Assembly (NCBI GenBank): GCA_030390025.1
Contig: CM059432.1
Coordinates: 28,646,001-28,710,000 of the forward strand
Direction of reading: 5' to 3'
DNA: 64,000 bases
Source: Squalus acanthias
Taxonomy: Eukaryota
Shown piece after piece: positions 3,063 to 61,759 of the stretch (within the stretch, counting starts at the first letter, position 1; every line of letters begins with the position of its first letter). Made by a program: the position numbers and the translations under genes. The notes beneath the pieces are model-generated. The model had not been told where the DNA came from. It did no database searches and worked only from the letters and a program-made list of their open reading frames with translations.

Positions 3063-3545
3063 ACAACAACTTGCATTTATGTAACACAATAAACATAATA
3101 ACATAATAAAATGTCCCAAGGCACTTCAAAGGAGTGTAATCAGACAAAAGTTGACAACCAGCCAAAGAAAGGGACATTAGGACAGGTGACCAAAAACTTG
3201 GTCAAAGAGGTAGGTTTTAAGGAGTATCTTAAAGGAGGATAGAGAGGTGGAGATGTGGAGAGGTCTGGGGAGGAAATTCTCGAGTTTAGAGTCTAGACAG
3301 TTGAAGCACAGCCACCAATGGTGGGCGAAGGAAGTGGGGAATGCACAAGAGGCCAGTGTTGGAGGAACGCAGAATTCCCGGATGGTTGTAGGAGTGGAGG
3401 AAGTTACTGATATAGGGAGGGGTGAGGCCTCGGAGGGATTCAAATAAGACAATGAGAATTTTTAATATCGAAGCATTGGTGGGCCAGGAGCCAATGAAGG
3501 TCAGCGAGCACAGGGATGATGGGTGAACGGGACTTGGTGCAAGTT
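3063..3545 (-). mobile_element. L2-type LINE 3' fragment
   Basis: Reverse-complement homolog of 36365-36870, ending ...taaatgcaagttgttgt. Confidence 0.7.
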
Positions 3546-3744: not shown

Positions 3745-4940
3745 ATTCTTATTGACAACGTCTATGTTGTGTATATGGACTTTCAAAGGCGTTTAACTAA
3801 GTACCACATAATAGACTTGATATGCAAAATTAAAGCCCATGGGATTAAAGGGACAGTGGCAGCATGGATACAAAATTAGCTAAAGGAACAGAAAGCAGAG
3901 TGTAGTGGAGAATGATTGTTTTTCAGACTGGAGGGAGGTGTACTGTGGTGTTCCCCAGGAGTCATTATTCAGACCACTGCTCTTTTTGATAAATATTAAG
4001 GAACTGGACTTTATTTCAAAGTTTGCAGATGACACAAAACTCGGAAATGTAGTAAACAGTGAGAAGGATAGTAACAGACTTCAGGAGGACACAGACAGAG
4101 TGGTGAAATGGGCAGACACATGGCAGATGAAATTTAACGCAGAGAAGTGTGAAGTAATATATTTTGGTACGAAGAATGAGGAGAGGCAATATAAACTAAA
4201 TAGTACAATTTTAAAGGGGGTGCAGGAACAGAGATACCTGGGGTGTTTGTACAGAAATCTTTGAAGGTGGCAGGACAAGTTGAGAAGGCTGTGAAAAAAA
4301 TCATATGGGATCCTTGACTTTACTAATAGAGGAATAGAGTACAAAAGCAAGGAAGTTATGCTAAACTTGTATAAAACACTGGTTAGGCCTCAGCAGGAGT
4401 ATTGTATTCAATTTGGGCACCACACTTTAGGAAGGATGTCAAGACCTCAGAGAGGGTGCAGAAGAGATTTACTGGAATGGTACCAGGGATGAGGGACTTC
4501 AATTATGTGGAGAGACTGGAGAAGTTGGGGTTGTTCTCCTTAAGAACAGAGAAGGTTAAAAGGAGATATGATGGAGATATTCAAAATCATGAATGGTTTT
4601 GATAGAGTAAATAAGGAGAAACTGTTTCCAGTGGCAGAAGGGTCGGTAACCAGAGGACACGGTTTTAAGGTGATTGGCAGAAGAACCAGAAGCGACATGA
4701 GGAAACTTTTTTTTTTACACAGCGAATTGTTGTGATCTGGAATGCACTGCCGGAAAGGGTGGTGGAAGCAGATTCAATAGTAACATTCAAAAGAGAATTG
4801 GATAAATACTTGAAGGGAAAAAATTGACAGGGCTATGGGGAAAGAGCGGGGGAGTGAGATTAATTAGATAGCTCTACCAAAGAGCCGGCACAGGCACGAT
4901 GAGCCGAATGACCTCCTTCTGTGCTGCATCATTCTATACT
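3745..4940 (+). mobile_element. CR1 LINE, 5'-truncated and decayed RT
   Basis: YMDFQ...GVPQES...SKFADDTKL, W..KFNAEKC, then C-terminus and 3'UTR; frameshifted. Confidence 0.92.
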
Positions 4941-5044
4941 TGCATTTATACAGAGAACCTAATTAAGTCTCAGAAATGTCTTCGCGTACAATGTGAAGTG
5001 CAGTCACTTTTCTTATGTAAGCAAATGCAGTGGAAAAGGGGGAA

Positions 5045-8000
5045 CGGCAGTGTAGTGGTAATGTCACTGGGCTAGTAATCCAGAAGCCTGGACTAATGAT
5101 CCAGAGATGTGAATTCAAATCCCACCACGGCAGCTGGGGAATTTAAATTCAGTGAATTAAATAAATCTGGAATAAAAAGCTAGTATCAGTAATGGTAACC
5201 ATGAAACTATCGGATTGTCGTAAAAACCCATCTGGTTCACTGATGTGAACAACAATGTGGTCGACTCTTAATTGCCCTCTGAAATGGCCTAGCAAGTCAC
5301 TCAGTTATAACTAACCGCTACGAAACAAAATAATAAGAATGAAACCGGACGGACCACCCGGCATCGACCTCGGCACCGGCTACGGACATGGCAACGGCAC
5401 ACCCAGTCAACCCTGCAAAGTACTCCTCACCAACATCTGGGGACTTGTGCCAAAATTGGGAGAGCTGTCCCACAGACTAGTCAAGCAACAGCCTGACATA
5501 GTCATACTCACAGAATCATACCTTTCAGCCAATGTCCCAAACTCCTCCATCACCATCCCTGGGTATGTCCTGTCCCACCGGCAGGACAGACCCACCAGGG
5601 GTGGTGACACAGTGGTTTACAGTCGGGAAGGAGTGGCCCTGGGAGTTCTCAACATTGACTCCGGACCCCATGAAGTTTCACGGCTTCAGGTCAAGCATGG
5701 GCAAGGAAACCTCCTGCTGATTACCACCCACCGCCCTCCCTCAGCTGATGAATCAGTAGTCCTCCATGTTGAACACCACTTGGAAGAAGCACTGAGAGTA
5801 GCAAGGGCACAGAATGTTCTCCGGGTGGGGGACTTCAATGTCCATCACCAAGAGTGGCTCGGTAGGTAGCACCACTGCTGGCCGAGTTCTGAAGGACATA
5901 GCTGCCAGTCTGGTCCTGCGACAGGTGGTGAGTGAACCAACACGAGGGAAAAACCTACTTGACCTCGTCCTCACCAATCTACCTGTCGCAGATGCATCTG
6001 TCCATGGCAGCATTGGCAGCAATGACCACCGCACAATCATTGTGGAGACGAAGTCCCGTCTTCACACTGAGAACACACTCCATCGTGTTGTGTGGCACTA
6101 CCACCGTGCTAAATGGGATAGATTCAGAACAGATCTAGCAGCTCAAAACTGGGCATCCATGAGGCGCTGTGGGCCATCAGCAGCAGCAGAATTGTATTCC
6201 ACCACAATCTGTAACCTCATGGCCCAGCATATCCCTCACTCTACCATTACCACCAACCCTGGTTCAACAACGAGTGTACAGGAGCAGCACCAGGCATACC
6301 TAAAAATGAGATGCCAACCTGGGGAAGCTGCAACACAGGACTACATGCATGCTAAAAAGCGGAAGCAGCATGCTATAGACAGGGCTAAGCGATCCCACAA
6401 TCAACGGATCAGATCAAAGCTCTGCAGTCCTGCCACATCCAGTCGTAAATGGTGGTGGACCATTAAACAACTAACGGGAGGAGGCTCCAAGAATATCCCC
6501 ATCCTCAATGATGGTGGAGCCCAGCATGTGGTTGCAAAAGACAAGGCTGAAGCGTTTGCAACCAACTTCAGCCAGAAGTGCCGAGTGGATGATTCATATC
6601 GGCCTACTCCCGAGGTCCCCACCATTACAGAAGCCATTCTTCAGCCAATTCGATTCACTCCACGTGATATCAAGAAACGGCTGAGCGCACTAGATACAGC
6701 AAAGGCTATGGGCCCCGACAACATCCCGGCTATCATGCTGAAAACTTGTGCTCCAGAACTAGCCGCACCTCTAGCCAAGCTGTTCCAGTACAGCTACAAC
6801 ACTGGCATCTATCCGACAATGTGGAAAACTGCCCAGGTATGTCCTGTCCACAAAAAGCAGGACAAATCCAACCCGGCCAATTACCGCCCCATCAGTCTAC
6901 TCTCAATCATCAGCAAAGTGATGGAAGGTGTCATCGACAGTGCTATCAAGCGGCACTTACTCACCAATAACCTGCTCACAGATGCCCAGTTTGGGTTCCG
7001 CCAAGACCACTCGGCTCCCGACCTCATTACAGCCTTGGTCCAAACATGGACAAAGGAGCTGAATTCCAGAGGTGAGGTGAGAGTGACTGCTCTTGACATC
7101 AAGGCAGCATTTGACCGAGTCTGGCATCAAGAAGCCCTAGTAAAACTGAAGTCAATGGGAATCAGGGGGAAAACACTCCACTGGCTGGAGTCATACCTAG
7201 CACAAAGGAAGATGGTTGTGGTGGTTGAAGGTCAATCATCACAGCCCCAGGAGTTCCTCAGGGCAGTGTCCTAAGCCCAACCATCTTCAGCTGCTTCATC
7301 AATGACCTTCCCTCCAACATAAGGTCAGAAATGGGGATGTTCGCTGATGACTGCACAGTGTTCAGCACCATTCGCAACTCCACAGGTAATGAAGCAGTCC
7401 ATGCCCGCATGCAACAAGACCTGGATGACATTCAGGCTTGGGCTGATAAGTGGCAGGTAACATTCGCGCCACACAAGTGCCAGGCAATTACTATCTCCAA
7501 CAAGCGAGAGTCTAACCACCTCTCCTTGAGATTCAATGGCATTACCATCGCCGAATCCCCCACTATCAACATCCTGGGGGTCACCATTAACCAGAAACTT
7601 AACTGGACCAGCCACATAAATGCTGTGGCAACAAGAGCAGGTCAGAAGCTAGGTATTCTGCGGCGAGTGTCTCACCTCCTGACTCCCCAAAGCCTTTCCA
7701 CCATCTACAAGGCACAAGTAAGGAGTGTGATGGAATACTCTCCACTTGCCTGGATGAGTACAGCTCCAATAACACTCAAGAAGCTCGACACCATCCAGGA
7801 CAAAGCAGCCCGCTTGATTGGCACCCCATCCACCACCTTAAACATTCACTCCCTCCACCACCGGTGTACCGTGGCTGCAGTGTGTACCATCTACAAGATG
7901 CACTGCAGCAACTCGCCAAGGCTTCTTCGGCAGCACCTCCCAAACCTGTGACCTCTTCCACCTAGAAGGACAAGGGCAGCAGGCGCATGGGAACACCACC

Positions 8001-8250
8001 ACCTCCAAGTTCCCCTCCAAGTCACACACCATCCTGACTTAGAAGTATATCGCCGATCCTTCATCGTCGCTGGGTCAAAATCCTGGAATTCCCTACCTAA
8101 CAGCACTGGGGGAGTACCATCACCACACGGACTGCAGCGGTTCAAGAAGGCGGCTCACCACCACCTTCTCAAGGGCAACTAGGGATGGGCAATAAATGCT
8201 GGCATTGCCAGCGACACCCTGATCCCATAAAACGAATAAAATAAAAAAAT
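5045..8250 (+). mobile_element. Near-complete single-ORF APE+RT LINE (CR1/L2 group) with tRNA-like 5' head
   Basis: ORFs 5339..5869 (APE: NIWG, PDIVILTES, GDFN), 5814..7274 (SNDH, NYRPISLL, QFGFR, LDIKAAFD) and 7331..7951 (FADD, RSVMEY) are one frame broken by small indels. Tail gatgggcaataaatgctggc plus A-rich end. Flanked by halves of an older Deu-SINE. Confidence 0.93.
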
Positions 8251-10534: not shown

Positions 10535-13500
10535 GACATGATTACAACTCAAAGAACAACACCTCATCTTTATATTAGGCATTTTACAGTCTTTCGGACT
10601 CAACATTGAGTTCAACAATTTCTTCAAAACCTCTGCCCCCATTTTTTTGCAGACGATTCTGCTATTCCCATTTACACCTCCTCTTGACCCATCTTTTGTT
10701 TCTTTACTTGCCGCATTACCATCTCCTTTCGCCTTTTACCATCATCCCTTTTGTCTTTTAATCACTCCTGTCTTCCACCCTATCGCAGACCTTCCCTTTT
10801 GTTCTTTCCTCCCGTCCCCTTTCCCTGCCTCTGTATTTGCTTAAAACCTGTTATATCTCTAACTTTTTCCAGTTCTGTCGAAAGCTCATCAACCTGAAAT
10901 GTTAGCCCTGTTTCTCTCTCCAAAGATGCTGCCTGACCTGCTGAGTATTTCCAGCATTTTCTGTTTATATTTCAGATTTCCAGCATCCGCTATATCTTGC
11001 TTTTCTAGTAGTGTTTAATTCACTGCCACTTCTCTTCCAGGAATGCCCACCTTGAAGAAGTTCTGCTTTTCTCTTCGACAGGATTTCCATTTGACTCTTT
11101 TACCTTGTTCATCTTCACTGCTTTCTGTTTCCCTTCTCATGTTTGATCAGGTATCTACCAAAACTCGCTTTCACAGTCACATCTCTTTCCTCAGCAACTG
11201 TCTCCATCTCCGACGTATTCCATGTGGATTCCAACTGAAATTCCACCCTTCATGTTTCGGATCCACTCATGATTACAGATATCTCCAGGATATTCAGCGT
11301 TCCTCGAACCACTGCTCTCGCCGTATCCTGAGATCCATGCTCGATGCCATGCACTGCCACATGCACACTCTCGACCTCTCTCTTCAGCGGCACTGACTCA
11401 CTCTATCTCAAAGCTGTCCTGGTTCACCATTCCATTTCATCCTTCGCCTCATCCGGCACTTTAACAAAAAACTTTTTTTCTTCCTTTCAGGCTCAAAGAT
11501 CGTAAGCTTCAACAACTCTTAGATACCAAAGCCCCTCCAGAACCTTCTTCCCCTTCACTTTCCTCTGACCCCATCCCTTCTTCCACTCTCACCCCTTGTC
11601 GTGTTTTCACTATTCCTTCTGACCTTCCCCTCTTTGACCCCAATCATTCCTCAGCAAAGGCTTCAACTTCATCCCCCTATGCCCCCACCTCAATGAATTT
11701 TGACCTCAGCATGACGCTGAGCTATTCTTCCATCGCCTTGGCCTCCACACCCACTTCTTTGGCCAGGAGTTTTCCCTCCGCACAATGGACACTTTCGCTC
11801 GTCTTCAGAATTCTCGTTCCACCTGGACCCCTCCCCCTGGCCTCTTACCCTCTCTAGATCTTTTCATTGGGAACTGCCGGCATGACATCGGCCGTCTCAA
11901 TTTCTCTGCTCCCCTCACTCACTCTAACCTACCTCCCTCTGAACTTGCAGCACTCCGTTCTCTCAGATCCAACCAGAACCTTGTCATTGAACCTGCTGGG
12001 AAGGGTTGCGCTGTTGTTGTTTGGTGAACCGACCTCTACCTTACAGAAGCTGAATGCCAACTCTCTAACACCTCCTCCTACCTCCCCTTGGACCATGACC
12101 CCACCATCAAAAATCAAGCCATTGTTTCCAAGGCTGTCACTGACCTCATCTCCTCTGGAGATCTTCCCTCCATGGTCTCCAACCTGATAGTCCTCCAACC
12201 CCGCACAGCCCGCTTCTACCTCCTTCCCAAGATCCACAAACAGGACTGCCCTGGCAGACCCAACGTTTCAGCCTATTCTTGCCCCATGGAACTGATTTCT
12301 TCCTATCTCAACTCTATTTTTTCTCCCCTTGTCCAGTCTCTTCCTATCTACATCCGCAACTCTTCCGACACCCTCCACCACTTTTACAGCTTCCAATTTC
12401 CTGGCCCTAACTGTCTCCTGTTCACCATGGACATCCAATCCCTCAACACCTCTATCTCCCACCAGAATGGTCTGAGGGTTCTCCGCTTCTTGCTTGAACG
12501 GAGGCCCAACCTGTCCCCATTCACCACCACCCTCCTCCGCCTGGCTGAACTTGTTCTCACATTGAACAACTTCTCCTTTGGCTCCACTCACTTCCTCCAA
12601 ATAAAAGGTGTTGCTATGGAAACCCATATGGGTCCTAGTTATGCCTGCATTTTCGTGGGATATGTGGAATATTCTTGGTTCCAGTCCTACTCAGGTCCCC
12701 TCACTGAATCTCTTTTATCGGTACATTGATGACTGTATCGGTGCCATTTCCTGCTCTCACCCTGAACTGGAAAGTTTCATCAACTTTGCTTCCAATTTCC
12801 ACTCTTCCCTCGTCGATCTTTGACTCTTCCCTTCCCTTCCTCAACTTCTGTGTCTCTATTTCTGGGGATAGGCTGTCGGCCAATATCCACTATAAGCTCA
12901 CTGATTCCCACAACTACCTTGACTACGCTTCCTTCCACCCCGCTTCCTGTAAGGACTCTATTCCAATCTCCCAGGTTCTCCATCTCCATTGCATCTGATC
13001 CGACGATGCCACCTTCCATACCAGTGCTTCCGATATGTCTACCTTTTACCTTAACCAAGGATTCCCCTCCACCGTGGTTGATAGGGCACTTGACCGTGTC
13101 CATTCCATTTCCCGCAATTCTGCTCTCACCCTTCCCCTCCCTCCCAGAACAAGAATAGGGTTCTCCTTGTCCTCACCTTCCACCCCACCAGCCTCCACAT
13201 TCAATGAGTCATTCTCCACACTTTCCACCGCCTCCAGCGTGATCCCACCACCAAACACAACTTCTCCTCCCCTTACAGCATTCCGAAGGGACCGTTCCCT
13301 CCTCGACACGGGTACACTCCTCTATCATCCCCAACACCCACTCCCATTCCCACGGCATTTTCCCGTGCAAGCGCCGGAGATGCAACACCTGCCCTTTTAC
13401 CTATTCCCTTCCTACCATCCAAGGCTCCAAACACTCCTTCCAGGTGAAACAGTGATTTACTTGTACTTCTTTTAATTTAATATACTGTATTCGCTGCTCA

Positions 13501-19632: not shown

Positions 19633-19828
19633 TTTATATATTCATTCATGGGATGCAGGCAACAGCATTTATTGGCCATCGCTAATTACCATTTCAGAGG
19701 GCAGTTAAGAGTCAACCACATTGCTGTGGGAGTCACATATAGGCCAGACCAGGTAAGGATGGCAGATTTCCTTCCCTAAAGGACATTAGTGAACCAAACA
19801 GGTTTTTAACAACAATGCAGTAGTTTCA
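19633..19828 (-). mobile_element. Short head-plus-tail derivative of the 5045-8250 LINE
   Basis: Same fused 5'UTR/tail layout as 2586-2876. Confidence 0.7.
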
Positions 19829-20070
19829 TCAAAGACATCAGAAACAGGGAAGAGGGTGATCGCATTCTCCGGAGATTTACATGCATATACGTGTATCATT
19901 TAGCACACATTATCCCCATCAGTTAACGCTTCCTGCGTCACATTTTCTGTGTCACACTTCAGCATTGCTTTAGCCAGATATGCAGATTTCTTGCAGTTGA
20001 TTGGCTCACATTTTGTATTTGCAAAAGAGCAACAACTGATAGCCAAAGGAGTAGGAGTTGGATGAATCAA

Positions 20071-21333: not shown

Positions 21334-23379
21334 GGCCTAGAAATGCAATAAGGATCGAAAATAGGCGGTGGCACCGTGGGGCAAGATTTGCTCATGCCTG
21401 TTTCAGAAATCACAGGCAGCACATTATTTTGGTGCTACCTGCTGGTGTGAATGATTTTAGTGCACAGCCGAGCGACGAATGCATTGCTTCAGGCTGTGTG
21501 CTCAGCAGGAGGCCCAATGTCATGACGCTGTAGCGTCCCTGGAGCAAGGTTGTATTCTCTTAGAGCAAGGCTGTCATTTTAGAAAGCAGTCTTGAGCCTT
21601 TAAAGGTGAACTGCCTTCTGAAAAAAAAATTAAAAGTCATTCCAAACTAGGCAGTCTTCAGCTCTTAAAGCTGAACTGCCTTCTGCATCTTAAAAATAGT
21701 AAAAGTGATTCAGCACTAATACAAATGGCTGAACAGGCCAGGGAAAGGGCACCCAGGGTCTCGCATGCAGTACTTGAGCATTGTGCAGGGGGTCAACACT
21801 GGAAGAGAGGTCCTCTGCCCACAAGGGGGCCAGGAGGCTTTCCAAAAAGAAAGATGTGGTTCAGATCGCCGAGGCTGTCACTGGCACCAGTGTCAACTCC
21901 AGGACCTAGCTCCAGAGCCCAAAGAAGTTTCATGACCTCAGATAAGTGGTCAAGGTCAGTGACTGCATCTTCAAAAGCCATCTCCTACCAACTGCGCCAC
22001 CAGCCTCAAACACTGCTCAATGCACGACCCCCCGCCCTGATCACTCACCTACCAACAATCTCTACCAAACACAAGTCACACGTCACATTCCTAGCTTCAC
22101 CTCACCCCCTAGGTGGAGACAGCGCTGGCCATTCTTGGCAGGGGCATGGCTGAGCCCTTGGCCAGTGGCAGGGCTGAAAGAATACAAGATGCTGGTATCC
22201 TCATACATTATCCTCCTTCTCACATCCTCCTCATCCCACAATATCTTCTCATGTACAAGCTGCACATGGTGTAAGCATGCTCCTCTTACTTTCCTGCCTG
22301 CCCCTCACCACTACCCTACCCTTGTGCCTTCTTCATTTCAGAAACACAAAAAATCTAGCCTGCCCAGCCAGTAGTTGACCAAGAAGAGGAAGAGGAGAAT
22401 GAAGAAGAAGAAGAAACACTGTCACTCGATTTCACACTCCCAGCCACCAGCTCCTCGAGGTCATCCTGAAAGGCCATCTGCAGCGTCCCCCTCACTATGG
22501 GAATGCACAAGGGTGATTTGCCGATTTTTTGATGTAATATTGGATGCATATATGGATAAAGTTGGATTGGAAAGTTTGCTTTGTGGTGGCTTTTATTTCA
22601 GAATTGTGGCCAAGAGAACGCTGTGATGGTCAGTAACAGAGGGAAGGTAAGGTGTGGGACTAATGTTGAAAGGGGAATTGGGGTTGTGGTCAGTGGTACA
22701 GCAGATGGATGATTCAATCCTGGATATCCCGGCCAGAAAGGGGCTGTCTGGGTTGTCTCCTCCTCTTCTGCTTCTTCCTCTTCTGCTTCTTCCTCTTCTA
22801 CTTCCTCTTCCCTCTCCCCTTTGCTGCCTCTGCTTTATCTTCATGTGATGTTGCAGCTCAAGGGGGACTGCAACTAGAGCCCCCAGGACAGAGAGCAAGT
22901 GGTGTTCTCAGAGGCCTTGCTTTAACATCCAAAGCCTTGCAAGTGTACAGCAGCACTGCCTGCACACTTTAACAACTTTTTAAATGCATTGCACCAAGCC
23001 ACAATCCAATAAAAAATAAAAAAAACACTCCAAAAGCTGAAATCGAAACTTACCTGAAAGATGTGTGTGTCCCTTTAAGAAGCGCTGACAGCTTCTCTGT
23101 ACAACTGCTGCACACTCATTCTTCCGTACATGGTTAGGAGAGGGCGTTATGGAGTGCAGCGACGTCCAAAACCATAGTCATGCATCAATTCAGGCGTTGC
23201 ACGCCGATTGACGTCACGATCTGCACATTTACATTGGAGAGGCGAGCGCAGGCAACGGCAGCGCTGCTGACCTCTCCAAAATGGCGGCCACTGTGTCCCA
23301 TGCCGGAAGTGAGGCAGCCGGCACTTTTTCAAGAAAACGGGCCTTAATGACCAGCGATACTACATGGAATTTCACGGCC
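21334..23379 (+). mobile_element. Internally deleted PIF/Harbinger element with Myb/SANT-like pseudogene
   Basis: TIRs GGCCTAGAAAT / AATTTCACGGCC, TSD AAG (21331-21333, 23380-23382). Frameshifted MAEQARERAPR...IAEAVTG...KKFHDL from 21725. Convergent acidic tail on the minus strand. Confidence 0.85.
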
Positions 23380-25409: not shown

Positions 25410-25868
25410 AGAAAGCAAGAAGGTGAATTTATATAGGACCTTTCACAACCTCAGGACATCCCAAAGTGCTTTATAGCAAGTGAAATACTTTTGAAGTGTA
25501 GTCACTAATGTAATGCAGGGAAGCGTGACAGCCAATTTACACACAGCAAGGTCCAACAGACAGCAGTGAAATAAATGACCGGATAATCTGTTTTAGTGAT
25601 GTTGATTCAGGGATAGCTATTGGCCAGAACACGGGAGCGACCTCCCCTGCTCTTCTTCGCAATAGCACCATGGGATCTTTTACATCCACCTAAGAGGGCA
25701 GACGGGGCCTTGATTTAACGTCTTATTTGAAAGACAGCACCTCCGACAGTGCAGCATTCCCTCAGTACTGCACCAGAGTGTCAGCGTAGATTTTGTGTTC
25801 AAGGCCCTGGAGCGGGGACTTGAACCCACGAATTTCTGTCTCAGAGGTGAGAGTGCCACGGCTGACAC
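25410..25868 (-). mobile_element. Deu-domain SINE (SacSINE1-like), full length
   Basis: Reverse complement of 37180-37645 (tRNA head, aaagatcccatgg core, L2-like tail). Confidence 0.85.
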
Positions 25869-26344
25869 ATTCTGTGTGACCACGCACTTCATGTTATTAC
25901 TGAAGAATTTAAATGTGACAAACAATCCTACATGCAGGAATACAATTGCACAGGGATCGCTTATAGAGGAGGAGGAAAGCAATGGAAAGAACAGTTGAAA
26001 AATTAATTCTTATGTCAACACAATAAGAAATGCTGAAGTTGCTCAAGTGGAACACGATGGACATCTGAAATAAAAGGTACACTTTGTTCCTCGCCTGGGA
26101 TCTGCACTGGAACTACATTTGTGTTCTATTTATATCAACGATTCGGACACAACCATTCTTCATATGTGACTTTGGACAATGAGTGCTGATGGGGGTTGAG
26201 CACCCCAATTCAAACAAATACCTCATGCAACGTCTACACAGGTGCATAGCAGCGGGCACTGAAAAGCGACCAGGATTGAAAGCCCTGGGTGATTGTCCCT
26301 CACCCAAACCCAAGTGTGCTGAAGCCAATTGTAGCAACCCAACA

Positions 26345-29238
26345 GGTATGGTAGCTTAGTGGTTGTGTTGCTAGACTAGTAATCCAGAGGCCCGGACTAA
26401 CGATCCGGAGACATGAGTTCAAATGCCATCACAACAGCTGGGGAATTTAAATTCAGTTAATTCAATAAATCTGGAATAAAAAACTAGTATCAGTAATGGT
26501 GACCATGGAACTATCAGATTGTCGCAAAAACCCATTTGGTTCACTAATATCCTTGAGGAAAGGAAATCTGCCGTCCTTACCTGGTCTGGCCTACATGTGA
26601 CCCCAGACGCACAATGTGGTTGACTCTTAACTGCCCTCTGAAATGGCCTAGCAAGCCACTCAGTTATGCCAAACCGCTAAAAAGAAGTATACTAAGAACA
26701 AAACCAGACAGACCACCCGGCATCTACCTAGATAAAGGCACACCCAGCCAAGTCAAGCCTGCAAAGTCCCTCCTCACTAACATCTGGGGACCTGCGCCAA
26801 AATTGGGACATAGTCATACTCGCAGAATCATACCTTTGAGCCAACATCCCAGACTCCTCCATCACCATCCCTGAGTATGTCTTGTCTCACCGGCAGGACA
26901 GATCCAACAGAGGTGGCGGTACAGTGGTAGACAGTCGGGAAGGAGTGGCCCTGGGACTCGTCAACATTGACTCCGGACCCCATGAAGTCTCATGACATCA
27001 GGTCAAACATTGCCAAGAAAAACGACTGCTGCCTTCCCTAAGCTGAAGAATCAGTACTCCTCCAAATTGAACACAACTTGGAAGAAGCACCGATGGTAGC
27101 AAGGGCGTAGAACGTACTCAACCATCTTCAGCCAGAAGGGCCGAGTCGATGATCCATCTTGGTCTCCTCCTGAGGTGAGGTCCCCACCATCACAGAAGCC
27201 AATCTTCAGCCAATTTGATTCACTCCATGTGATATAAAGAAACGGCTGAGCACACTGGATAGGAAAGGCTATGGGCCCCGACAACATCCCGGCTGTCTTG
27301 CTGAAGATTTGTGCTCCAGAACTAGCCACGCCTCTCGCCAAGCTGTTCCAGTACAGCTACAAAACTGGCATCTATCCGACAATGTGGAAAACTGCCCAGG
27401 TACGTCCTACATAGGAGCAGGAGTAGGCCATTCGGCCCCTCGAGCCTGTTCTACCATTTAATGAGATCATGGTTGATCATCCAAATTCAGTACCCTGTCC
27501 CTGCTTTCTCCCCTTATCCCTTGATCCCTTTAGCCTTAAGAAATATATCTAACTCCTTCTTGAATATATTTAATGAATTGGCCTCAACTGCCTTGTGTAG
27601 TAGAGAATTCCACAGGTTCACCACTCTCTGGGTGAAGAAATTCCTCCTCCTCTCAGTCCTAAATGGCTTACCCCTTATTCTTAGACTGTGACCCCTGGTT
27701 CTGGACTCCCCCACCATCGGGAACATCCTTCCTGCATCTAGTCTGTCTAGTCCTGTTAGAATTTTATAAGTTTCAATGAGATCCCCTTTCATTCTTCTAA
27801 ACTCTAGCGAATATAAGCCTAATCGACCCAATCTCTCCTCATACGTCATTCCTGCCATCCCAGGTATCAGTCTGCCACAAAAAGCAGGACAAATCCAATC
27901 CGACCAATTGCTGGCCCATCAGTCTACTCTCAATCATCAGCAAAATGATGGAAGGTGTCGTCAACAATGCTATCAAGCGACACTTGCAAATTACCTGCTC
28001 ACCAATGCTCAGTTTGGGTTCTCTCAGGACCACTCAGCTCCAGACCTCATTACAGCCTTAGGCCAAACATGGACAAAAGAGCTGAATTCCAGAGGTGTGA
28101 TGAGAGTGACTGCTCTTGACATCAAGGCAGCATTTGACCGAATCTGGCATCAAGGAGCCCTAGTAAAATTGAAGTCAAGGGGAAAACTCTCAACTGGCTG
28201 GAGTCATACCTAGCACAAAGGAAGATGGTTGTGGTTGCTGGAGGGCAATCATCTCAGCCCCGGGACATTGTTGCAGGAGTTCCTCAGGGCAGTGTCCTAG
28301 GCCCAACCATTTTCAGCTGCTTCATCAATGACCTTCCCTCCATCATAAGGTTAGAAGTGGGGATGTTCGCTGATGATTGCACAGTTTTCAGTTCAGATAA
28401 TGAAGCAGTCCGTGCCCGAATGCAGCAAGATCTGGACGACATTCAGGCTTGGGCTGAAAAGTGGCAAGTAACATTCGCGCCACACAAGTGCCAGGTAATG
28501 ACTATCTCCAACAAGAGAGAGTCTAGTCACTGCTCCTTGACATTCAACAGCATTATCATCGCCGAATCCCCCACCATCAACATCCTGGGGGTCACCATTG
28601 ACCAGAAACTTAACTGGACCAGCCACATAAATACTGTGGCTACAAGAGCAGGTCAGAGGCTGGATATTCTGCGGCAAGTGACTCACCTCCTGACTTCGCA
28701 AAGCCTTTCCACCATCTACAAGGCACAAGTCAGGAGTGTGATAGTATACTCTCCACTTGCCTGGATGAGTGCAGCTCCAACAACACTTAAGAAGCTCGAC
28801 GCCATCCAGGACAAAGCAGCCCGCTTGATTTGTACCCCTTAAACATTCACTCCCTCCACCAGTGGGGCACCGTGGCTGCAGTGTGTACCATCTACAAGAT
28901 GCTCTGCAGCAACTCGCCAAGGCTTCCTAAACAGCACCTCCCAAACCCGCGACCTCTACCGCCCATAAAGACAAGGGCAGCAGGCGCATGGGAACACCAT
29001 TACCTCCAAGTTCCCCTCCAAGTCACACACCATCCTGACTTGGAAATATAACACCATTCCTTCATCATCGCTGGGTCAAAATCCTAGAACTCCCTCCCTA
29101 ACAGCACTGTGGGAGTACCTTCACCACACGAACTGTAGCGGTTGAAGAAGGCGGCTCACCACCACCTTCTCGAGGGCAATTAGGGATAGGCAATAAATGC
29201 TGGCCTTGCCCACATCCCAAGAACGAATTAAAAAAAAA
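26345..29238 (+). mobile_element. Second copy of the tRNA-headed APE-RT LINE, internally deleted, interrupted by a CR1
   Basis: Colinear with 5045-8250. A-box TAGCTTAGTGG at 26352-26362, deletion near 27110, ORF 28225..28842 (GVPQGSVLGP, FADD), same tail. Confidence 0.92.
27409..27872 (-). mobile_element. CR1 3' fragment nested in the LINE
   Basis: ORF 27514..27858 is the CR1 C-terminus; host sequence gcccaggta.gtcct|ccacaaaaagcagg resumes after it. Confidence 0.92.
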
Positions 29239-40884: not shown

Positions 40885-43097
40885 GGGCTAAAAATTCAGG
40901 GGCTTTATGAAGGCTTGTATGTCAAAAAAATCGTGTAAAGAGGGCGGCTGCCGCTCTTTCGCCAGCTGGTGGCGGGTCCCACGGCGTCCTCCATTTTCCT
41001 AGGCTTGGCAGCGCTGCCGGTAAGATGCATCATCCTGCAAAGGAAAATGAGGGAGCGGTGGCGTCAAGCCGTCACGCCGACATAACGTCACTACGGCGAA
41101 CTTGGACCTTTGCGCTGAGTTTAGCGCTGGGTCCTAAGCATGCCGGGTAAACCCAGCATGCAAGCAGACTCACAGAGGTGCTGAAAAACACACACATCTT
41201 TCAGGTAAGTTTGCATTTAAGCTTTTGGACGGGGTTTTTTAGATTTTACTGAAGTAGTAACTTGATGCAATAGATGTTAAAAGTTTTTTAAGTGTGTAGG
41301 GAGTGCTGCTGGACATTTGCAAGGCCTCAGATGGTAAAGGAAGGCTTCTGAGAAGATAGAAAAAGCTGCAAATACTCAGCAGGTCAGGTAACATCCATGT
41401 AGAGAGAAACAGAGTTCACATCTCAGGTCAAGATGCTGTCTGACCTGTTGAGTATTTCCAGCATTTTATGCTGTCATTTCAGACTTACAGCATCTGCTCG
41501 CAGAGGGAAGAGGAAGATGCAGAAGAGGAAGAAACAGAAAAGGAAGAAGCCAAAGAGGAGGAAACAGAAGAGAAGGAAGCAGAAGAGGAGGAAGCAGAAG
41601 GAAAGGTGCAACCCAGACAGCCCCTTTTTGGCTGGGATATCGGGATGGAATCATCTGCCTGCAGTCCCAGTGGCCACAACCCCAATTCCCCTTTCAATAT
41701 TAGTCCCACACCTTACCTTCCCTCTGTCACTGACCATCACAGTGTCCTCTTGGCCACAATGCTGGAATAAAAGCCACCACAAAGCAAACTTTCCAATCCA
41801 ACTTTATACATCTATCTATCCAATGTGACATCAAGGAATCAACTCATCACCCTTGTGCATTCTCTTAGTGACTGTCTTGTGTGTGCCTTTGCCTATCCTA
41901 CTGATGTCATGTAGTGCTACCCCAGTGGCAGCAGCATGGCTGGTTGAAGGGTGCTGACTTTCAGTGGTGGACACTGCAAATGGCCTTGCTGGTCAACCTT
42001 GAGAAGCTGGTGGCTGGGTGTGTGAAATCGAGTGATGGTATTTCTTCTTCTTCTTCTTCTTCTAGGCTGCATTTCTTGGGTATGTGAATTGAGGAAGGCA
42101 CAAGGGTGGATTTGTGGTGAGGGGAGGGCGGGAAAGCAAGAGGTGCATGCCAGAAGGAGGATAACGTATGAGAATACCAGCATCTTGTATCCTTTCAGTC
42201 CCACCATTGGCCAAGGGCTCAGCCATGCTCCTGCCAAGAATGGCCAGCACCGTTTCCTCCAAGGAGGCGAAGTGAGGCTATGAATGGGAGATGTGCATCG
42301 TGGTTGGTACAAATTGTTGGTAGGTGAGTGACTGGGGAGGGGGCATCATGGATTGAGCAGTGTGTGAGGCTAGTGATGCAGTTGGTGGGAGACAGTTTTT
42401 GAAGATGCATTCACTGACCTTGACCAGTGGTCTGAGGTCATGAAGCTTCTTTGGGCACTGGAGCCAGGTAGTGGGGGTGACACTGCTGGCAGTGATGGCC
42501 TTGGTGATGTGGTCCCACATCATTCTTTCTGGAGGGCCTCCTGGCCCCTGTGGGTAGAGGACCTCTCTTGCAGTGTTGACCCCCTGCACAAAGCTGGAGT
42601 GTTGCGTGCGAGACCCTGGGTGCCCCTTCCCTGGCTTGCTAAGCCACTTGTGTTGGTGTTGAAGCACTTTTCCCATTTTTTGAGGTGTGGACGGGAATTC
42701 AGCTTTAAGAGATGAAAACTCCCATTTGGGAATTTTTTTTCATTGTCAATTTTGTTTCAAAGGCAGTAAGGGCTGAAAACTAAATTTTTTCCACTTCATT
42801 TTAATTTTTATTACTTCAGAAGGCATTGCCCTTTTAATGCACTGCCTCTTTAATTTCCCACAATTCCTAGCGCACTCCATAACCTCACTTCCAGAGGCTG
42901 TTGGAAGCTGGAACGTCGCTTCAGGATGGGAACTTCGACTCCCCTGCCTGCGCTAATGCCACCAGGAGGGCGTTACATCGTAAGTTAGCACTGGGCTAAA
43001 AATCTTTAGCCCCCAGCGCAAATTTTTCCCTGGTAGAGCTTTGTCCATTTTCAGCGGCCGTTGACCGACTCTCGTGGTGACCACGAATTTATCCCCC
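40885..43097 (-). mobile_element. Second, inverted copy of the Myb/SANT-bearing Harbinger derivative
   Basis: TIRs GGGCTAAAAATTC / GAATTTATCCCCC, flanking CTT/TTG duplication (ambiguous by 1 nt). ORF 42278..42676 reads VQGVNTAREVLYP...MWDHITKAI...TWLQCPKKLHDL. 41630-41800 is the reverse complement of 22560-22750. Splits an L2 fragment (40700-40884, 43098-43430). Confidence 0.85.
41361..41495. mobile_element. Decayed Penelope-derived fold-back nested in the Harbinger element
   Basis: aaatactcagcaggtcagg...agagagaaacagagtt / gatgctgtctgacctgttgagtattt, same family as 9024-9248. Confidence 0.75.
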
Positions 43098-57183: not shown

Positions 57184-60100
57184 CATAGAAACATAGAAAC
57201 ATAGAAGATAGGAGCAGGAGTAGGCCATTCGGCCCCTCGACCCTGCTCCGCCATTCGATGAGATCATGGCTGATCATCCAAACTCAGTACCCTGTACCTG
57301 CCTTCTCCCCATATCCCTTGATACCTTTAGCTTTATGAAATATATCTAACTCATTCTTGATTATATTTAATGACTTGGCCTCAACTAACTTCTGTGGTAG
57401 AGAATTCCACAGGTTCACCACTCTCTGGGTGAAGAAATTCTTCCTCATTTCTGTCCTAAATGGCTTACCCCTTATCCTTAGATTATGACCCCTGGTTCTG
57501 GACTCTCCGACCATCGGGAACAGTCTTCCTGCATCTAGTTTGTCCAGACCTGTCAGAATTTTATATGTTTCGATGAGATCCCCTCTCATTCTTCTATACT
57601 CCAGAGAGTATAAGCCCAATCGACCCAATCTCTCCTCATATGTCATTCCTGCCATCCCAGGTATCAGCCTTGTGAATCTTCACTGAACTCCTTCCATGGC
57701 AAGAACATCCTTCCTCAGATAAGGCGACCAAAACTGCACACAGTACTCAAGGTGTGGTCTCACCAAGGCCCTGTACAACTGCAGCAGGACATCCCTGTTC
57801 CTATACTCAAACCCTTTCGCTATGAAGGCCAACATACCATTTGCCTTCTTCACTGCCTGCTGCACCTGCATGCTTACCTTCAGCGACTGGTGCACCCAGG
57901 ACACCCAGGTCTCGTTGCACTTCCCCTTCTCCCAATCTATTGCCATTCAGATAATAGTCTGCCTTTCTGTTTTTGACACCAAAGTGGATAACCTCGCATT
58001 TATCCACGTTATATTGCATCTGCCACGCTTCTGCCCACTCACCCAACCTGTCCAAATCATCCTGGAGTTTCTCGGTATCCTCCTCACAGCACACACGCCC
58101 ACCCAGCTTTGTGTCATCTGCAAACTTGGAGATATTACATTTAGTTCCCTTATCTAGATCATTAATGTATATTGTGAATAGCTGGGGTCCAAGGACCGAT
58201 CCCTGTGGTACCCCACTAGTCACTGCTTGCCACTCGGAAAAAGACCCATTAATTCCTACTCTCTGCCTTCTGTCCGCCAACCAGTTCTCTATCAAAGTCA
58301 ATACCTTGCCCCCAATCCCATATGCCTTAACTTTACACGCTAATCTCTTATGCGGGACCTTATCGAAAGCCTTTTGAAAGTCCAAATACACCACATCTAC
58401 TGGTTCTCCCTTATCTATTTTCCCAGTTACATCCTCAAAATATTCCAGTAGATTAGTCAAGCACGATTTACCTTTTGTAAATCCATGTTGACTTTGTCCG
58501 ATCCTGTCACTGTTTTTCAAGTGCTCAGTTATTACATCCTTTATAATGGACTCTAGCATTTTCCCCACTACTGATGTCAGGCTTACCGGTCTGTAATTCC
58601 CCGCTTTCTCTCTACCACCCTTTTTGAATAGTGGGGTAACATTAGCTACCCTCCAATCCATGGGTACAGTTCCAGATTCCATCGAATGTTTGAAGATGAT
58701 CAGCAATGCATCTACTATTTCTAGGGCGACTTCCTTAAGTACCCTAGGATGTAGATTATCAGGCCCTGGGGATTTATCGGCCTTCAATCCCGTCAATTTC
58801 CCTAACACAATTTCCCTGCAAATACTGATTTCTTTCAGTTCCTCCCTTTCATCAGACCGTATGTTCTCCAACATCTCTGGGAGGTTATTTGTGTCCTCCT
58901 TTGTGAAGACAGAACCAAAATAGGCATTTACTGTAATTGGTCTGCCATTTCTTTGTTCCCCAGTATAACTTCCCCCGCTTCTGACTGCAAGGGACCTACA
59001 CTTGATTTCACTAATCTTTTTCTCTTCACATATCTATAAAAGCTCTTAGTCAGTTTTTATGTTCCCTGCAAGCTTACTTTCATATTCTATTTCCCCCTTC
59101 TTAATTAATCCCTTTGTCCTCCTTTGTTGAATCCTAAACTGCTCCCAATTCTCAGGGTTACCGCTTTTTCTGGCCAATTTATATGCCCTCTCCTTGGATC
59201 TTATGCTATCCCTAATTTCCCTTGTTAGCCACGGTTGAGTCACCCTTTTTGTTTTATTCTTATGCCACACTGGGATGAACAAATTCTGTAGTTCATCCAT
59301 GCAGTCTTTGAATGTTTGCCATTGCCTATCCACCGTCAACCCTTTGAGTGACATTCCCCAATCAATCCTACCCAATTCGCGCCTCATACCATCGTAGTTT
59401 CCTTTATTTAAATTCAGGACCCTAGTCTCTGATTCAACTACTTCACTCTCCATCCTAATGAAGAATTCTATCATATTATGATCACTCTGACCCAAGGGGC
59501 CTCGTACAACAAGATTGCTAATTAATCCTTTCTCGTTACAAAATACCCAGTCTAAGATGGCCTGATCTCTGGTTGGTTCCTCGACATATTGTTCCAGAAA
59601 ACCATCCCGTAAACATTCTAGGAATTCCTCCTCCACAGTATTTTTACTAATTTGGTTAGCCCAATCTATATGTAAATTAAAGTCACCCATGATGACTGCT
59701 GTGCCCTTACTGCATGCTTCTCTAATTTCCCTTTTAATGCCGTCCCCAACCTCCGTATTACTGTTTGGAGGTCTATATACCACTCCCACTAATGTTTTCT
59801 GCCCCTTGTTATTTCTCAGTTCTACCCATACAGATTCCACATCATCAGAGCTAATATCCTTCCTTTCAATTGTGTTATCCCCTCTTTAACCAGCAATGCT
59901 ACCCCACCTCGCTTTCTTTTTTGCTTATCTTTCCTAAATATTGAATACCCCTGGATGTTGAGTTCCCAACCTTGGCCACCCTGGAGCCATGTTTCTGTAA
60001 TCCCAATCATAACCGTATTCATTTACCTCTATTTGCGCAGCTAATTCATCCACCTTGTTCCGAATGCTCCTTGCATTAAGACACAAAGCCTTCAGGCTTG

Positions 60101-61135
60101 TTTTTTTAATGCTCTCAGACCTATATGAATTATTATTTACTGTGACCATGTTTGATTTAAACCATTGAGTTCTTTGCCTTCTACTTTTGTTTTTCTCCTT
60201 CCTGTCTTTTGCTTTTATCCTTGTTTCCCTTTCCTCTGACTCCCTGCTCAGGTTCCCAACTTTAGTTTAAACCCTCCCCCAGAGCACTAGCAAACACTCC
60301 CCCTAGGACATCGGTCCCAGCCCTGCCCAGGTGCAGACCGTCCCGTTTGTACTGGTCCCACCTCCCCCAGAACCGGTTCTAATGTCCAAGGAATTTGAAT
60401 CCCTCCCCCTTGCACCATTCCTCTAGCCACGTATTAATTTGAAATATCCTCCTATTTCTACTCTGACTAGCACGTGGCACTGGTAGCAATCCTGAGATTA
60501 CTACCTTTGAGGTCCTATTTTTTAATTTACCTCCTAACTCCCTATATTCTGCTTTTAGGACCTCATCCCGTTTTTTACCTATATCGTTGATGCCTATGTG
60601 CACCACGACAACTGGCTGTTCGCCCTCCCCCTCCAAAATGTTCTGTAGCCGCTCCGAGATGTCCTTGACCCTTGCACCAGGGAGGCAACACACCATCCTG
60701 GAGTCTCGTTTGCGGCCGCAGAAACGCCTATCTATTCCCCTTACAATTGAATCCCCTATCACTATAGCTTTTCCACACTTTTTCCTCCCAGCCTGTGCAG
60801 CAGAGCCACCCATGGTGCCAGGAAGTTGGCTGCTGCTGCCTTCCCCTGATAAGTCATCCCCCCCAACAGTATCCAAAGTGGTATATCTGTTCGAGAGGGG
60901 GATGGCCACAGGGGACCCTTGCACTACCTGCCTGCACCTCTTACTCTGCCTGGTGGTCACCCATTCACTTCCTGCCTGTACACCCTTTACCTGCGGTGTG
61001 ACCAACTCGCTAAACGTGCTATCCACGACGTTCTCAGCGTCGCGAATGCTCCAATATGCATCCATCCGCAGCTCCAGCGCCTCAATGCGGTCTATCAGTA
61101 GCTGCAGCTGGATACACTTCCCACACACATGGTCG
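57184..61135 (-). mobile_element. Near full-length CR1 LINE (HER1-like): ORF1 esterase plus ORF2 APE-RT
   Basis: ORF1 at about 60262-61128 (CGKC, coiled coil, GDS, GIND, DGLH; one internal stop). ORF2 pieces 59934..60149, 59822..60022, 59046..59840 (GDFN, SDH), 57807..58874 (KFADD), 57680..57946 and 57284..57655. Tail (ttctatgt)n. Confidence 0.96.
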
Positions 61136-61759
61136 TCTTTTCACATGCTGACTAGTTTCTGTTTTGCACTTCCAACATTTTCTGTGGTTATCTCACATTT
61201 CAGCATGTCTGGAATCCCAGCAAGTCAGAGTTATCTGCTCGATTTTTATTTTATTCTCTTTCTTCTGTAGCCAATGATATTTTACTTCAAGTGTTTATCC
61301 AGTTCCCACTTTTCTTTTAGCTAACAGTAAAGAGCTGGATTGACAAATAATGTACTTATCTTTCATGGACAGTTCATTCTCAAATCCTCTGATAGACTAT
61401 GGAGTCAGTCAGCAGTAACAGGCAGCTAGATGTAAATGTGCATCATGGAAATCGCCCTCCCCTCCCCACAAACACACCCACACACCCACACACACACATG
61501 GCTGAGCGATGCCACAAGGAAATGATGTATGTTTCAATGGAAGCTGATGACACAGACCTCACTATGCAAAGAAGGCCCACTGACATTCAGCCTGTCCTCA
61601 CTTCATGATCATCAAAGGTGCTCTTCATATTCACTCCATCAAAACTGTGGTTTTGTTTATGAAAATAAATAATTCAACCCTGCAGCTTTCGAGCGCACAC
61701 TGCTTCTTCAATGCTGGTTTCTTTTGCAGAGCCATGTTTCACTCTTGAATACAATTAAG

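Follow-up and report, generated by a model that had tools for sequence, protein, structure and literature searches.

A Zenon retroelement of the dogfish with a tRNA-like head, depleted Pol III terminators and a reading frame lacking an early AUG

The dogfish element and its described relatives

By the usual division, long interspersed nuclear elements (LINEs) are coding and transcribed by RNA polymerase II (Pol II), and short interspersed nuclear elements, or SINEs, code for no protein and yield RNA polymerase III (Pol III) transcripts. Here we analysed a 64,000-nt stretch of Squalus acanthias DNA (contig CM059432.1, positions 28,646,001 to 28,710,000; henceforth the window). Positions 5040-8249 (+ strand) hold a LINE of the Zenon family (CR1 group), full-length but decayed and with an A-rich tail, which opens with a tRNA-like head. 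According to the main text of a recent survey, the Zenon elements of elasmobranchs, coelacanth and hagfish are always without a first open reading frame (ORF1) and carry a poly-A tail (Stuart et al., 2026, PMC13343379). A preliminary description of the window had regarded the lack of an ORF1 as unusual. This was not borne out because all surveyed Zenon elements are without it. The supplement of the survey contains SquAca_Zenon-1, which at 3,314 nt equals the length of the column majority of dogfish copies used below and by eye is identical to it over the first 130 nt; a consensus carrying the head is already published there. SquAca_Zenon-1 and its elasmobranch relatives resemble the window element in the lack of ORF1, the apurinic endonuclease (APE) and reverse transcriptase (RT) domains and the poly-A tail. 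Inspected by eye over the first 400 nt, seven elasmobranch consensus rows from five species all open with the head; three rows from hagfish and coelacanth show none over this length, and their ends may be incomplete. The words tRNA, polymerase III and promoter have no occurrence in the main text. Thus the head, the terminator depletion and the AUG-less start reported here are unremarked in that part of the publication.

Related architectures are known from other animals. Lepidoptera have a single-ORF Zenon with an internally deleted partner, Persaeus, which retains 5' untranslated region (UTR), ORF start, ORF end and tail like the short shark copies described below (PMC6740152). However, Persaeus is described as having neither tRNA homology nor a Pol III promoter, whereas in the shark the long and the short forms are both headed. 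The tRNA-derived SINEs with LINE parts are built like the shark element in that a conserved body and a LINE tail follow on a tRNA head with A and B boxes, yet they are non-coding; in the shark Zenon the head sits on a coding element (Kojima, 2018, PMC5786205). In that article LINE 5' parts in SINE bodies are reported for RTE and Vingi only, and the LINE partners are taken as Pol II transcripts. The shark elements SacSINE1 and CmiSINE have a tRNA head like Zenon, but L2-type tails (PMC5499810). Further SINEs have been described (PMC5499810, PMC4824008, PMC11481361, PMC5753468, PMC3899998). No Pol III-headed coding LINE was found in the literature searched, with Repbase, Dfam, subscription journals, figures and bioRxiv supplements lying outside the search. 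This is a known family with an apparently undescribed and well-supported anatomy.

Head, terminators and reading frame

The head (5040-5133, +) contains the predicted A box of a type 2 Pol III promoter (5048-5058), the sequence of which is common to 30 heads compared, two anticodon-arm-like stem-loops (5067-5083 and 5088-5104) and a predicted B box (5111-5123). The boxes, and a second head at 26352-26427, are located where the preliminary description had placed them. In the window copy a G-to-A change turned the B box from the family's GAGTTC into GAATTC. The head was aligned with a panel of host tRNA genes comprising seven anticodons and six amino acids. tRNA-Gln was the best match among those, with Z-scores of 7.5-8.5 for the family and the window copy and 26 of 34 nt identical over the anticodon-like arm and the B box. 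The alignment score was 36, whereas none of 124 further 100-nt windows of the element scored above 22. The tRNA derivation proposed in the preliminary description was thus upheld; the Gln isotype is a tentative assignment. In the head of the older second copy tRNA-Gln reached a Z-score of 3.7-4.1 only and tRNA-Cys was higher (5.8). By itself the head is a weak tRNA: Rfam gave 19 bits (cut-off 29, E 0.32), and ARAGORN called no tRNA gene in the window. The young head carries the extra stem-loop. In an older subfamily, the copies of which were all short (30 of 30), the head has one arm and is as large as a normal tRNA. A search pattern for the one-arm head gave 20 short copies, seven without a tail and three with later ORF pieces (n = 30); this pattern is unspecific, many matches being two-arm heads with small deletions. 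In having a tRNA-related head with A and B boxes the element corresponds to the tRNA-derived SINEs (SINE2). At 3.3 kb and with a 973-codon ORF the long form is not short, non-coding and non-autonomous as those are, and only its short derivatives fall into that class.

Thirty loci selected by the head start at one base, GGGAAY, in unrelated flanks and with minor decay. For an unbiased set, the endonuclease region served to select the copies; the best 30 of 40 scored were taken, among them the window copy. A full head was present in 15, two started at nt 32-49 and 13 within the leader or the ORF start; in two of these 13, head pieces were found about 700 nt further upstream. No pair among the 30 shared any other upstream sequence at the junction, which argues against an alternative 5' end or an ORF1. 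The earlier proposal that head and ORF moved together agrees with these data. In the genome of 3.7 Gb, exact matches numbered 8,596 for the family B-box motif and 11,201 for a leader motif; the reversed controls had none.

The preliminary description had proposed a count of Pol III terminators, i.e. runs of four or more T (T4), on the sense strand. For sequence comparisons a column majority was derived from the window copy and 13 of 20 fetched copies; five without an end and two with large insertions were dropped. The copies are 94.6-97.9% like this majority of 3,314 nt (window copy 97.7%). Its sense strand contains no T4 run and seven TTT. Since TCTTT and TATTT end Pol III transcripts too (PMC8466645), both were added to the counts. 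T4 or TVTTT (TTTT, TCTTT, TATTT, TGTTT) occurred 0 times versus 3.8 expected in a dinucleotide null (P 0.025), and any site with four T in five once versus 8.1 (P 0.002); these wider patterns were picked after the T4 result was known. Inside the ORF, one four-T-in-five site compared with 7.3 expected by synonymous-codon shuffling (P 0.0055). The observed/expected ratio of such four-in-five sites was 0.13 for T, and 1.03, 1.04 and 0.74 for A, C and G, respectively. Thirteen natural copies contained five T4 runs in 42,605 nt altogether, three further long copies none. As a control served a near full-length CR1 in the window (about 57200-61300, - strand), which has an ORF1 with a GDSL esterase (PF13472) and an APE-RT ORF2 and which we take to be HER1-like. 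It had 8 T4 runs versus 8.1 expected. Among 80 metagenome relatives T4 runs were found in all and an upstream pair of A and B boxes in none, and most of their long frames have an early Met; these sequences are 28-41% identical, T-richer, many without a 5' end, and not the nearest outgroups. The sense strand of the dogfish element is thus depleted of Pol III terminators.

The majority contains one unbroken frame of 973 codons with APE and RT domains; this length is known from the majority. No other frame exceeds 120 codons. Single ORF, absence of ORF1 and the A-rich tails of two-ended copies agree with Zenon. In the window copy the ORF is broken and extends from 5317 to 8182 (+), about 280-300 nt behind the 5' end as the preliminary description had it. 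The frame starts ATKQ, and its first Met is codon 287, beyond the endonuclease domain. Upstream, the ORF is bounded by an in-frame TAA (5308-5310, +), which lies three codons 5' of a GCT in 65 of 81 long copies. The nearest AUG (5339-5341, +) opens an upstream ORF (uORF) of 48 codons which is out of frame in the family; in the window copy it reaches the endonuclease frame solely through a 5-nt deletion at 5402. At this site 47 of 91 copies have ATG and 31 have ATA, and older long copies likewise show ATA. Start-region anchors were applied to 79 extracted copies, of which 64 were fitted and 15 were not. The distance from GCT to just past the nearest AUG is 19, 22, 25 or 28 nt in 62 of the 64, i.e. 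indels keep the frame upstream of that AUG. In two homologues that are 39% identical, ATK lies close to the N-terminus and a basic stretch follows, as in the element frame. As far as visible by eye, the published consensuses of ray, white shark, whale shark and catshark carry the GCT in frame (PMC13343379). Judged from these sequences, we consider with high confidence a non-AUG start at or next to the GCT to be the reading common to all subfamilies.

Head and ORF are joined by a conserved leader (5134-5316, +), which by eye is also recognizable in the first 400 nt of five published consensuses; the window copy lacks 58 nt at about 5247. A small hairpin with a 7-nt loop (5279-5304, +; loop 5289-5295) is predicted to end 12 nt 5' of the GCT and is a candidate start-positioning element. 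The spacer is 12 nt in 61 of the 64 fitted copies. By eye it also measures 12 nt in four published species, against 11 nt in whale shark; at the start region the published consensus of the dogfish lacks one A that the majority has (PMC13343379). One subfamily change preserves a stem pair as G-U. A competing nested helix, GUGGUU:AACCGC, is predicted around the start bases. Long and short copies did not differ in loss at the loop U (p 0.18).

Probable transcription and translation of the active element

Because the 5' end is a tRNA-Gln-like head, the active element is likely transcribed by Pol III over all 3.3 kb. Pol III would read the internal A and B boxes and continue until it meets the first flanking T-run. 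Being uncapped, the RNA would recruit ribosomes via its leader, as the intergenic region (IGR) internal ribosome entry sites (IRESs) of dicistroviruses do, and translation of the endonuclease-RT frame would likely begin without an AUG, at or beside the conserved GCT placed by the RNA leader. The protein would then reverse-transcribe RNAs bearing the 3' tail, short derivatives included; a ribosome-binding leader may help short copies to reach new RT. A Zenon would have acquired the head before the divergence of sharks and rays. In this general form, Pol III transcription with a leader-directed, non-AUG start, we regard the proposal as reasonably probable. It retains from the preliminary interpretation the unit of head and ORF and the tRNA origin, adds the terminator depletion, and dispenses with an exceptional loss of ORF1. 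That the family ORF is devoid of an in-frame AUG ahead of the endonuclease domain had escaped the preliminary description. Its most elaborate version is distinctly more tentative, and we consider it rather doubtful as a whole. It would imply an autonomous coding element, Pol III-transcribed since before the shark/ray split, purged of T-runs and translated from GCU by a factor-independent IGR-type IRES, with short copies keeping the leader for docking near new RT.

Several observations weigh against Pol III transcription of a coding RNA or against a leader-directed start. To our knowledge, a protein-coding Pol III RNA of 3.3 kb is outside the norm. The absence of T4 runs taken alone is weak (P 0.02 in a mononucleotide null, 0.13-0.28 in stricter nulls), and the control CR1 has a slight four-T-in-five deficit as well (19 versus 26, P 0.039). 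AATAAA stands twice at the 3' end, at majority nt 3260 and 3303, which fits Pol II processing. An intact natural ORF was absent from 150 scored copies; in the three best (874, 864 and 736 aa) the start is lacking or the frame is broken. Some 3-nt indels near the start lie in an AAT repeat and may be due to slippage. The leader did not fold better than shuffled sequences (z -0.55 and +0.44). An anticodon mimic would be expected to preserve the hairpin loop U, which varies in 24 of 94 long copies. The loop AGC is complementary to GCT, but AGC and GCT do not covary. With head and leader, Rfam returned no IRES family at E up to 10 and only the sub-threshold tRNA.

The leader points are best seen against the type 6 (IGR) IRESs, which start at GCU or ACU without an AUG (PMC10275262). 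The Zenon ORF likewise begins without an AUG, by our reading at or next to GCT, behind an RNA leader which resembles the dicistrovirus IGR IRES in length (about 160-190 nt), in a terminal hairpin with a 7-nt loop and in the fixed distance of this hairpin to the start (PMC10275262). It differs from it in lacking an Rfam match, demonstrated pseudoknots and covariation, and in its variable loop U. An IGR-type mechanism for the Zenon leader has about even chances.

Could the long form be transcribed otherwise? The head may be tRNA-derived, but Pol II, starting in the leader or by read-through, may make a capped, polyadenylated mRNA that is translated from a near-cognate start or by reinitiation after uORFs; Pol III would then serve the short copies only. 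AUG-independent reinitiation occurs in L1 ORF2. The AATAAA signals fit such an mRNA. So do the nine AUGs within the first 360 nt, each of which is either in another frame or terminated by a stop, and a poly-A tail is Zenon-wide, even where no tRNA head is reported (PMC13343379, PMC6740152). However, AATAAA is also present in polyadenylated Pol III SINEs (PMC8466645). Pol II transcription leaves unexplained why T-runs were lost along the whole coding strand, and not in the control CR1 or the 80 relatives, and why the 5' end is sharp at the tRNA +1 position in unrelated flanks. We therefore consider it unlikely, though to be taken seriously. Less probable still is that Pol III transcribes the element and ribosomes begin upstream, at the AUG of majority nt 274 or 358, with a -1 shift into the ORF, or at an AUG obtained from a spliced RNA. 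AUG274 does sit in a conserved hairpin, the 48-codon uORF of AUG358 runs into the ORF start with a frame difference of one base, and by eye the published consensuses have an ATG at the latter position (PMC13343379). Yet ATA in place of AUG358 is a subfamily trait. Moreover, 28 of 81 long copies form the T331 subfamily, where a stop closes the AUG274 frame at nt 331-333 and another the ORF frame at 327-329. Neither AUG route is therefore common to all subfamilies. By eye no slippery heptamer was seen. The T331 and ATA subfamilies could, on the other hand, move in trans.

The absence of an intact copy among the 150 scored is also compatible with a long form that is a non-autonomous chimera of SINE and LINE, carried in trans by a separate Zenon with a different 5' end. 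No such end was present in the 30 endonuclease-selected copies, the majority ORF is unbroken over its 973 codons and N-terminal indels keep the frame. In addition, subfamily differences in the endonuclease region lean towards synonymous, if in small counts (e.g. seven synonymous, five non-synonymous). We consider the chimera very improbable. If Pol III transcription with a leader-directed non-AUG start holds true, a vertebrate LINE with thousands of copies coding from a tRNA promoter would break the division between LINEs and SINEs, its RNA would be a natural long Pol III mRNA, and SINEs could arise by plain deletion from a LINE which already owns a promoter. Should the leader dock short copies on ribosomes near new RT, the conserved SINE body would have a function. 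The leader would furthermore be a cellular candidate for an IGR-like IRES, so far a possibility raised for non-LTR elements (PMC3894237).

Short copies, window copies and further repeats

About half of the copies are short and consist of the leader joined to the 3' end. Among the first 30 head matches, 10 were long, 14 short with a tail and six fragments; the first 30 leader matches were 13 long and 17 short. At least 10 different junctions were present among 17 short copies. Many retain GCTACA and the last ORF codons, so the long form is their source. On the 5' side they extend to nt 300-359; thus the leader is retained nearly whole. The preliminary description had suggested an intermediate in the birth of SINEs. 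This stands in one direction: judged by junctions and retained codons, the short head-plus-tail copies are deletion products of the LINE. The window itself has two short relatives on the - strand. An old SINE-like one at 2601-2875, in which the leader is followed by the final ORF codons and the tail, belongs to the subfamily with a one-arm tRNA head; the other (19655-19829) is headless and has a partial leader and the tail. A likeness of the old short form to the amniote MER131 is presumed by us. At locus L391 a one-arm head and leader are joined directly to ORF codons 625-973 (87-93% identity), which is either a deletion form of greater length or a short copy that received a young insertion. 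A reading of the leader as a Nin-domain was dropped; Nin is placed within the Deu-domain (PMC4824008). Contigs from four sequencing runs of unspecified kind cover head, leader and ORF start; they are uninformative on expression, strand and start. In runs X9, X11 and X17 the contig depth over the leader core (L149:735-820) was far above that of the head; in those organisms, more abundant short repeats of other kinds may contain the core as well.

The preliminary description had bounded the window copy at 5045 and 8250. We corrected this to 5040 (GGGAAC) and, at the end of the A-tail, 8249. The copy is dead. In addition to the leader deletion, its frame is shifted at three points (5402, 5861 and 7248), other pieces are deleted and the codon at 7949-7951 is a premature stop. 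Pfam recognized the N-terminal part of the APE endonuclease domain at 5432-5866 (+; PF03372, E 2e-7) and the RT domain at 6855-7588 (+; PF00078, E 2e-18 and 4e-17), which is split by the frameshift at 7248. The RT-bearing protein is only 33% identical to that of the HER1-like CR1, and its PDB matches were of the L1 ORF2p type only. The 3' UTR (8183-8249, +), common to the short copies, has AATAAA at 8191-8196 and 8235-8240 and then the A-tail. Target-site duplications (TSDs), by which the preliminary description had wanted full-length copies to be checked, were rejected as boundary markers. None of 21 two-ended copies had a match of at least 7 nt, so that this check does not apply here. The second Zenon copy of the window (26345-29238, +) is of an older subfamily and internally deleted, and a reverse CR1 3' fragment was inserted at about 27409-27858. 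Just upstream of it, 25680-26009 has the look of a SINE with a Deu-domain, as we presume from the motif.

Shorter CR1 pieces are located in the window at 3884, 14019, 20163, 32406 and 54434. Another decayed RT-like element (11465-13475, +) had no significant match to the Zenon ORF; we assume it to be Penelope-like. GAA/CTT-rich arrays at 22761-22810 and 41507-41600 lie within similar repeats in opposite orientation. Elsewhere in the genome, a generic A/B-box pattern had 7,581 matches, of which those listed are nearly all a second abundant tRNA-headed repeat (L187-L216). The tRNA panel stayed at seven anticodons because this pattern returned that other SINE, which we take to be HE1, a V-SINE. 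tRNA-Gln genes are arranged in tandem every ~600 nt, with CTG and TTG anticodons alternating (C21:3.34-3.51 Mb and L183), and tRNA-Lys(TTT) arrays on other contigs have a period near 1.77 kb. Adjoining tRNA-Gln genes, ARAGORN called a tRNA with an ochre-reading TTA anticodon (L169:5814-5886, +), which may be a mutated Gln gene.

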